A stretch of DNA of 64,000 bases from Victivallales bacterium (GCA_045589595.1 JAZNPK010000032.1:53475-117474), one strand, 5' to 3'; numbered from the stretch's first letter, positions 20,559-20,789 are shown. Program-made: numbers and translations. The notes: generated by a model not told the origin, from the letters alone.

Positions 20559-20789
20559 GATGTGTGTTTCGCACTGCCGTGCGACCAGCGGACTGCCGCT
20601 GGACCGCAGCAAGGGCACAGCCCTTGACGTTGAGCAGAAAACTTGCACTTCGTGCGGCGTTTTCTGCCATAGTCATCACTGCACGCTGTGATGACGGAAG
20701 GAATAGAGCAGCACTCTGTCTTGATTGTGCTATTGAGTAAGCGAAGCGTTATGAAATAGCACTGTATGGCACACTCTGTGTGTGTTTAG
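20559..20789 (+). repeat. Multi-hairpin intergenic element, single full-length copy (copy A)
   Basis: Modules in order:
- CGCAC-tgcc-GTGCG (20570-20583)
- CCAGCGG-actg-CCGCTGG (20585-20602)
- AAGGGC-aca-GCCCTT (20611-20625)
- GCAGAAAAC..GTTTTCTGC (20634-20667)
- GTCATCAC-tgcacgct-GTGATGAC (20672-20695)
- GTGCTATT..AATAGCAC (20727-20762)
- TATGGCACACTCTGTGTG

The core 20581-20667 is nearly identical to 58951-59036. Confidence 0.75.

Follow-up and report, generated by a model that had tools for sequence, protein, structure and literature searches.

A hairpin chain behind ldcA in an uncultured Lentisphaeria species, a probable unit of a lineage-specific intergenic mosaic repeat

Copy A is a chain of hairpins that fills positions 20560-20785 of a stretch of 64,000 nucleotides (nt) from Victivallales bacterium (GCA_045589595.1, JAZNPK010000032.1:53475-117474), here called the window. 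By analogy with known systems, it is probably one unit of a lineage-specific, non-coding and non-autonomous intergenic mosaic repeat of the NIME, BIME, REP or BOX kind, and its hairpins would be maintained at the DNA level. The family behaves like selfish, fast-rearranging intergenic DNA, which is gained, lost and reshuffled between strains. On one side copy A abuts the stop codon (20786) of the LD-carboxypeptidase gene ldcA, and on the other side 68 unique bases (20492-20559) separate it from the ATG of the next minus-strand gene, as the initial annotation of this DNA had placed it. The spacer between these two minus-strand genes is 20492-20785. The host is an uncultured Lentisphaeria species, evidently found only in ENA and Logan assemblies. 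The LdcA protein of the window has no identical record in an exact look-up, and its best named homologues, with about 51% identity, are labelled "MAG: Lentisphaeria bacterium".

Units, junctions and differences between strains

Five core copies lie within the window, based on BLAST and a covariance model of the first four hairpins, hp1-hp4 (E-values 3e-24 to 8e-15; Table 1). All copies are intergenic, in either orientation, and stand singly or in head-to-tail arrays. The initial annotation described 20581-20667 of copy A as almost identical to 58951-59036 in the tandem array. This is right in substance, with 84 identities in 87 columns and one 1-nt indel, although there are two substitutions and not one. 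The pattern of the terminal palindrome is matched 9 times in the window, where 0.27 matches would be expected, and 8 of the 9 bound repeat units. The remaining one, at 13603-13616, lies within the gene for ribosomal protein L32 (rpmF) and was set aside as a chance match.

The repeats contain spurious open reading frames (ORFs): one of 214 amino acids (aa) spans the array at 58886-59530 (minus), and others of 69 and 63 aa lie at 20470-20679 and 20549-20740. In an exhaustive HMMER search the 214-aa ORF matched 15 spurious ORFs over other copies. Gene callers have turned such open frames of the repeats into the database "proteins" P0122-P0135, which are spurious annotations. Six of the 15 gave six further contigs with arrays (L034, L035, L036, L037, L041 and L042), which represent six further loci: one in L034, two in L035, one shared by L036 and L041, one in L037 and one in L042. 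Other searches were negative. A concatenated six-frame translation of the arrays had no matches as a protein query. The pattern AGCCCTTGA-N3-6-AGCAGAA-N10-36-TTCTGCC had 3 matches in GTDB representative genomes, 4 in JGI metagenomes and 0 in IMG/VR, and none is true; the GTDB and JGI matches are chance matches in coding DNA or lack similarity to the element. A second pattern, for the short unit, had 0 matches in IMG/VR.

When all arrays are split after the palindrome, their grammar becomes apparent. A unit consists of hp1 to hp5, an A-rich linker, and then a short module made of hp6 and the palindrome GGCACACNCTGTGTG of 13-15 nt. Within arrays, units end in the common hp6-like module plus GG(C/T)(A/G)CAC-N-CTGTG(T/C)G. 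Directly after the intact palindrome, the next unit starts at at least 10 different points. For the long unit these are hp1 (TTTCGC..., full length), positions ~3, 12, 30, 38 and 77, the start of hp5, and positions 183/184 and 207; for the short unit they are positions 1 or 16/17. Unit lengths range from 14 to 221 nt, and one "unit" is the 14-nt palindrome alone. The junction of GTGTG with GCACTTCGTGCGG recurs in ~10 contigs, whose naming styles (k141_..., ..._METAG-scaffold_...) indicate two assemblers. Units truncated at the 3' end are seen only at array ends (D and L037), with the exception of L035, where the inner hairpin of hp4 ends sub-repeats of 62 nt. This inner hairpin is near-identical to hp1 and belongs to the same GCAC..GTGC type as the palindrome, and L037 contains a hybrid hairpin of the palindrome and hp4. 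As read from the junction sequences, units overall keep their 3' end constant while the 5' end varies, and the joint apparently falls at the 3' foot of a small hairpin.

Where a truncated long unit follows an intact palindrome, its first bases are GC or CGC in seven of eight cases. Either the joining step could have a sequence preference, or there could be microhomology with the GTGCG variant seen at palindrome ends.

The content of the arrays differs between strains. Among contigs that encode an identical 135-aa protein downstream, the ldcA spacer measures 294, 295, 299, 301, 409 or 516 nt; two long units are present at this locus in L003, and one long and two short units in L004. The array downstream of the epimerase gene (59578-60501), in the spacer between the epimerase and TonB genes, is 762 nt long in the window; other samples have 540 or 484 nt, and many contigs end within this array. 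Loci D and E are constant in length. Whole modules are also exchanged. At the ldcA locus strains differ in the segment that begins with hp5 and stops short of hp6: it is of the GTCATCAC... type in the window, L005 and L006, and of the GTTTTTGCAAC... type, as in copy B, in L001-L004, L008 and L010, while the flanks are identical. At the L036/L041 locus the exchange concerns hp4 and hp5, and at the E locus conversion has affected a patch that includes hp3. The copies are paralogues, between which whole modules pass by recombination or conversion.

A smaller difference is seen at the border of the element, where the (TG)n/(CA)n run at 20783-20785 differs by 2-4 nt from those in L001, L002, L003, L008 and L010 (ACACACACAGAG, ACACACACACAGAG, ACACACACACACAGAG). 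This run behaves like a small microsatellite.

Copy A is absent from the corresponding place in relatives. In three related assemblies of two lineages (L038, L039 and L040) LdcA is ~50% identical to that of the window, and the next gene encodes 135 or 138 aa, in agreement with the gene order of the window. Between the two genes lie 63 nt in L038 and L039 and 57 nt in L040, and all that this spacer shares with the window is the motif TTTGACGCT. No family member was found with BLAST and the covariance model in 53 kb from the nearest related genera. Because the spacer of the relatives is only 57-63 nt long and the family is absent from their 53 kb, copy A is a lineage-specific insertion, which entered a spacer of ~60 nt immediately behind the stop codon of ldcA.

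The motif TTTGACGCT is followed, 11-13 nt on, by an A/T-rich hexamer, and this arrangement is conserved across genera (L038 10901-10963; L040 10895-10951). The spacing is unlike that of a standard sigma-70 promoter.

Three further observations concern the additional contigs. In L034, a long unit on the reverse strand (~250-440) contains a unique insert of ~190 nt between hp5 and the A-rich linker; it is AT-rich, with TTGACG and TTGAAA motifs, and has no Rfam match. In L037 the array at 9160-9500 adjoins a tRNA-Phe gene (9487-9562), and the spurious ORF P0132 extends from the array into the tRNA. At the far end of L023 (11180-11250) the array meets a different unique flank via the perfect palindrome GGCACACACGGTGTGTGCC, which represents either another genomic locus or an assembly chimera through the repeat.

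Conservation of the hairpins and the question of an RNA function

The differences between stems that the initial annotation listed are present: CGCAC/GTGCG in copy A corresponds to CGCGC/GCGCG elsewhere, GTGCTATT/AATAGCAC to GTGCCATT/AATGGCAC, and copy A has GTCATCAC/GTGATGAC as its variable hairpin. They were examined in an alignment of 21 distinct units (four window loci and strain variants) with 42 pairs in hp1-hp4, hp6 and the palindrome. Standard pairing is seen in 97.3% of the stem cells. Both sides are changed at 8 of the 42 pairs (28 cells), and 0 of 500 column shuffles reach the value for pairing or for double changes. When the 3' partner is slid by 1-3 columns, pairing falls to 32-47%. 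The two examples of the initial annotation are among the doubly changed pairs, as A-U to G-C in hp1 and C-G/U-A in hp6. For the hp6 pair a single-step wobble intermediate (U-G), GTGCTATT/AATGGCAC, is found at the same locus in L001, L003, L008 and L010. The extra loci add further compensated variants: GGCAC/GTGCC in hp1, CCGGCGG/CCGCCGG in hp2, and GCAGAATAT/ATATTCTGC versus GCAGAAAAC/GTTTTCTGC in hp4. In hp3 the 5' arm varies in few units, with G-U wobbles in the E-locus copies and GGGA in L004. These facts indicate that the copies keep hairpin potential, not primary sequence.

The compensatory changes had been taken as a sign of selection on structure. The maintenance of the hairpins stands. 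That the selected structure is an RNA acting as a terminator or insulator is not borne out, given the symmetry of the strands, the variable orientation, the exchange of modules and the absence in relatives. Covariation of the kind expected for a structured RNA is present, but the sequences compared are module-exchanging paralogues and strain variants, and DNA hairpins would give the same signal. One conversion event can replace both arms of a stem of 5-10 bp, and the compensatory differences are therefore not independent mutations. As a caution, a functional RNA should not be concluded from compensatory stem changes alone when the palindromic repeats compared are paralogues.

Copy A folds far beyond dinucleotide shuffles on both strands, and equally well. 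As RNA, the plus strand has -98.7 kcal/mol (shuffle mean -77.4, z -4.89, 0 of 200 shuffles as low) and the minus strand -88.0 kcal/mol (shuffle mean -66.8, z -4.95). As DNA, the values are -53.8 kcal/mol (z -5.40) and -53.5 kcal/mol (z -5.52). The element strand is more stable as RNA by 1.6-25 kcal/mol in 15 of 16 arrays. This advantage was considered as a sign of the functional strand and rejected: for copy A the means of the shuffles are offset just as far, so that the difference between its strands is compositional and the z-scores are equal. Single mismatches of G-T versus A-C, about 9 to 4 by eye, were also considered as evidence for a strand and are not significant.

The view of the initial annotation, that the element is a cis-acting, selected RNA structure in the neighbouring mRNAs, serving as a terminator, insulator or 3'-end stabiliser, is unlikely. 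The strong conservation of the stems, the compensated changes and the G-U intermediates on the element strand would fit it, and every copy lies downstream of the stop codon of at least one gene. The orientation relative to transcription is however not fixed. Copy A is antisense to both flanking genes and the copy at 53.3 kb (53256-53445, minus) is sense to its own, as annotated; L034 and L035 are also sense, and B, C and E lie between convergent genes. Neither is a strand favoured in folding, unit number and modules differ among strains at the same gene, and related genera do without the element at the same site.

In the direction of ldcA, copy A has no canonical terminator, as none of its hairpins is followed by a U-tract. 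The only plus-strand match of the terminator scan in copy A (20643-20657) is the inner hp4 hairpin, followed by CGTTTTCTGC. On the antisense strand of some other units, a T-rich tract lies 3-18 nt from hp6, as in GGGAGG-AAG-TTTTTTTATTTTTTT of unit C, an arrangement that favours an RNA role but is unlike the canonical form of a terminator. In copy A of the window strain this tract is wholly replaced. Likewise, canonical junctions have TTT after the palindrome, and the scan flags 59560-59574 as terminator-like. Rfam has 0 matches at the gathering score in the window and 0 in L034, L036, L041 and L042, and scans up to E = 10 over 20480-20800 and 58800-59600 give chance-level matches only (up to 17 bits). 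Because of the lack of Rfam matches, the unfixed orientation, the lack of a favoured strand after composition is considered, and the absence in relatives, there is no sign that the element is a conserved regulatory RNA. A role as terminator, insulator or stabiliser may exist as a side effect, although the evidence does not point there.

Joining of units and alternative explanations

The joining sites of the units would be the small GCAC(AC)-loop-(GT)GTG(C/T)G hairpins, namely the terminal palindrome, hp1 and the inner hp4 hairpin. A trans-acting enzyme might recognize such a hairpin in single-stranded or cruciform DNA and act at its 3' foot, which would explain why 3' ends are complete and 5' ends variably truncated. 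Cleavage is predicted at the 3' foot in single-stranded DNA carrying GGCACACACTGTGTG plus flanks. Homologous recombination and gene conversion between copies would afterwards shuffle the modules. The hairpins may persist since the folded form is what is recognized and propagated, and since the arms of a palindrome would be co-converted; a function as RNA would not be needed for their persistence. Hairpins that are transcribed in a 3' untranslated region probably act, as a by-product, as barriers to 3' exonucleases in the manner of REP elements, which as RNA stabilise the upstream mRNA.

The polar truncation hints at 3'-anchored copying by some enzyme. A bolder proposal, again by analogy, is that the family is a new non-autonomous bacterial mobile element copied from its 3' end, with the enzyme acting at the 3' foot of the GGCACACNCTGTGTG palindrome; this is conceivable, if on the doubtful side. 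In such copying a new unit would be laid down from the palindrome-bearing 3' end towards the 5' end, often incompletely, either through target-primed reverse transcription of an RNA ending in the palindrome or through rolling-circle copying of the HUH type. Each insertion would recreate the target, so that head-to-tail arrays of 5'-truncated units would grow behind gene ends.

Several facts weigh against the interpretation of the family as an enzyme-joined DNA repeat. No transposase, reverse transcriptase, HUH or GIY-YIG gene is seen in the window, where the basis is Pfam scans of 20 ORFs covering 25-51 kb and precomputed Pfam for the remainder, or in ~100 kb of related contigs. No empty-versus-filled polymorphism was found within the species, and no flank bases are duplicated as a target site at A, D, E, L034, L036 and L042; active transposition is for these two reasons not demonstrated. 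The 62-nt sub-repeats of L035 and the hybrid hairpin of L037 need only homologous recombination between near-identical hairpins. The very high conservation of the stems is also compatible with a selected RNA. Finally, the strain variants come mostly from short-read metagenome assemblies, and the order and number of units in arrays are possibly misassembled, although the junction sequences must occur in reads.

Some of these facts would suit a passive minisatellite, in which slippage, unequal crossing-over and gene conversion act with no dedicated enzyme and the dispersed copies are old duplications. The L035 sub-repeats are bounded by identical 12-nt hairpins (GCACTGCGTGCG), the L037 hybrid joins two hairpin types, a deletion between CGT repeats could turn the 72-nt unit into the 56-nt short unit, and the length of the (TG)n run varies between strains. 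Slippage does not, however, explain how copies came to be dispersed over 10 or more unlinked intergenic sites. It likewise leaves unexplained why copy A is inserted precisely behind the ldcA stop codon, where relatives have no copy, and why at least 10 truncation points each border an intact palindrome, almost or entirely without microhomology. This makes the passive process improbable as the whole explanation. Passive slippage and recombination account for part of the variation, not for the dispersal or the polarity. That each unit is an independently transcribed, structured small RNA gene is very improbable: multicopy, partly tandem units of ~220 nt with several hairpins would agree with it, but truncated units of 14-190 nt are common, on the element strand a consensus scan finds no promoter-like site in the units or upstream of them, unit ends lack a canonical terminator, Rfam has no match, and the family is absent in related genera.

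The hairpin repeats REP, BIME, NIME and BOX shape bacterial genomes, and the spread of most of them is still poorly explained. The arrays described here are an unusually clear record of unit addition, with complete 3' ends and graded 5' truncations beside a small palindrome, in Lentisphaerota, a phylum of which hardly any member has been cultured or studied genetically. They differ between co-occurring strains, and a complete genome together with population data at the level of reads could open the joining mechanism and the enzyme to direct tests. In practice, the repeats break metagenome assemblies, many contigs ending inside them, and yield spurious ORF calls that enter protein databases. 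They could be used as markers for strain typing.

The features are compiled in Table 1. For the 135-aa protein, a word-indexed homologue search returned the protein itself alone, and it has no Pfam domain. It is probably encoded by a fast-evolving conserved gene, since a gene of the same size is present at the same position after ldcA in related genera. Two other genes in the window contain tandem repeats. In the TonB_2 gene (57865-58815), 15-nt tandem repeats at 58094-58286 encode (PEPPK)n, and the protein is 296, 316 or 336 aa long among strains, so that the repeat number varies. In the gene for a VWA-domain protein (27314-29494), imperfect 15-nt repeats at 28851-29338 encode Q/N-rich tracts, and the orthologue is 717, 726 or 733 aa long among strains.

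Table 1. Position of copy A, its modules, its neighbours and the other repeat copies in the window
Feature	Position	Strand	Remarks
Copy E: palindrome GCACACGGAAGTGTGC, hp2-hp5 (hp1 absent), A-rich tail	9300-9468	+	
Inverted short unit beside copy E	9469-9541	minus	
135-aa gene downstream of copy A	20084-20491	minus	135/138-aa gene syntenic after ldcA in related genera
Motif TTTGACGCT upstream of 135-aa gene	20536-20544	minus	Conserved in related genera, untouched by the insertion
ATGTGTG half-palindrome remnant, 5' border of copy A	20560-20566	+	Matches 3' half of unit-ending palindrome; GGAAGCGCG instead in strain L003
Full-length long unit copy A: TTT, hp1-hp6, terminal palindrome	20567-20785	+	Covariance-model match 20568-20672, 122 bits, E 3e-24
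hp1 TCGCAC-TGCC-GTGCGA, GCAC..GTGC type	20569-20584	+	A-U pair to G-C in 4 units; GGCAC/GTGCC variant in L034
hp2 CCAGCGG-ACTG-CCGCTGG	20585-20602	+	A-U to G-C in 5 units; CCGGCGG/CCGCCGG in L042
hp3 CAAGGGC-ACA-GCCCTTG	20610-20626	+	Most conserved module; 3' arm identical in all units
hp4 outer stem GCAGAAAAC/GTTTTCTGC	20634-20667	+	A-U to U-A and C-G to U-A in D-type units
hp4 inner hairpin TTGCAC-TTC-GTGCGG	20643-20657	+	Serves as unit end in L035
hp5 variable hairpin GTCATCAC-TGCACGCT-GTGATGAC	20672-20695	+	Three sequence classes, each internally complementary; class swapped between strains at ldcA locus
Linker, 31 nt	20696-20726	+	Replaced jointly with hp5 between strains; most other copies A-rich there
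hp6 GTGCTATT...AATAGCAC	20727-20762	+	Conserved core AAGCG-N-AGCGTT; 4 pairs change on both sides
Terminal palindrome GCACAC-TCT-GTGTG, then (TG)n run touching ldcA stop codon	20769-20785	+	Run length strain-variable
LD-carboxypeptidase gene (Peptidase_S66, LdcA-type)	20786-21685	minus	Pfam; stop codon contacts copy A
Copy D, reversed, without terminal palindrome	53256-53445	minus	Same length in three strains
First unit of tandem array, 5'-truncated	58816-58937	+	Begins within hp5
Long unit B, 221 nt	58938-59158	+	Covariance-model match
Long unit C, 216 nt, short-unit-type hp6	59159-59374	+	Covariance-model match
Three short units (72, 72, 56 nt)	59375-59574	+	Each an hp6-like hairpin plus palindrome; last one 5'-truncated (59519-59574)

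Comparison with known intergenic repeats

The element is a new, lineage-restricted form of the known class of mosaic hairpin repeats. In NIME arrays, 20-bp dRS3 palindromes bound RS units of 19-214 bp, at fixed positions and with variable content, and the palindrome has been proposed as the target of a specific recombinase (PMC1797815). The hairpin-specific nuclease SsnA, which acts on single-stranded DNA, cuts the NTS repeat, a longer form related to dRS3 (PMC11893778). The family described here shares with NIME the intergenic arrays, the short palindrome between units of variable type and length (here 14-221 nt), the many unit families, the recombinant units, and the fixed chromosomal positions with strain-variable content. 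In all arrays one short conserved palindrome bounds differing units. However, the palindrome GGCACACNCTGTGTG has no sequence similarity to dRS3 (ATTCCC-N8-GGGAAT), and each unit, repeated in direct orientation, is itself a hairpin chain with a constant 3' and a variable 5' end. The host belongs to Lentisphaerota and is not neisserial, so that the family is an analogue of NIME and not a member.

REP, BIME and REPIN sequences are thought to be mobilised in trans by a single-copy RAYT, which recognises a hairpin in single-stranded DNA (PMC3116915, PMC3337134). Like them, the present repeats are extragenic hairpins in mosaics, located mostly after gene ends, and keep structure over sequence. REP elements are single palindromes of 20-40 nt with a GTAG-type head, which REPINs and BIMEs pair in inverted orientation, whereas a 220-nt chain of differing hairpins is repeated directly here, without a GTAG motif. 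The palindromes are of 13-16 nt and of the GCAC(AC)..(GT)GTGC type, without a GTAG head, in direct units. No RAYT (Y1 HUH) gene is present within the 64-kb window and ~100 kb of the species.

The BOX element of Streptococcus pneumoniae, boxA-boxB(n)-boxC, is an intergenic repeat of modular build, with internal modules in varying number and differences in copy number. BOX elements are reviewed in PMC3184786. The present family is likewise modular, with a variable module number, a stable predicted fold and copy-number differences between strains. Its modules and sequence are unrelated to BOX, and only its 3' module is constant, whereas BOX is fixed at both terminal modules.

A constant, hairpin-bearing terminus with a variable opposite end is also seen in IS91/ISCR, in Helitrons and in 5'-truncated retroelements, such as group II introns and elements copied by LINE-type target-primed reverse transcription. 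Class C group II introns insert after terminator hairpins. The likeness to such rolling-circle or retroelement copies is one of pattern only, in the constant hairpin terminus, the head-to-tail arrays and the insertion beside a hairpin. Unlike them, the present units have no TC/CTRR ends and no GTTC/CTTG target and are far smaller. No Rep/HUH or reverse transcriptase gene is found in the available DNA, and there is no Intron_gpII or other group-II match up to E = 10 in 20480-20800 and 58800-59600.

Other classes were compared as well. A MITE was rejected, as the ends share at most TGTGTG/CACACA, which is the split palindrome, and no flank bases are duplicated at six loci. PATE, which derive from IS200/IS605, have subterminal hairpins at both ends and insert 3' of a fixed tetra- or pentanucleotide. 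In a comparison with them, hairpins are present at both ends (hp1 and the terminal palindrome); a unit inside an array comes after GTG(T/C)G, but the first unit of an array comes after GTGTG, GATCG, CTGAC, TTTCG or TAATG, so that no fixed target is apparent. Integron attC sites were rejected for lack of R'/R'' boxes, and CRISPR since the units, not spacers, are conserved. Sites of the dif/Xer type, a tRNA-like element and a fragment of a group II intron were likewise rejected.

The family is a member of none of NIME, REP/BIME/REPIN and BOX, from which it differs in palindrome, unit content, direct orientation and host. Judged by analogy of architecture, the NIME array stands closest to it.

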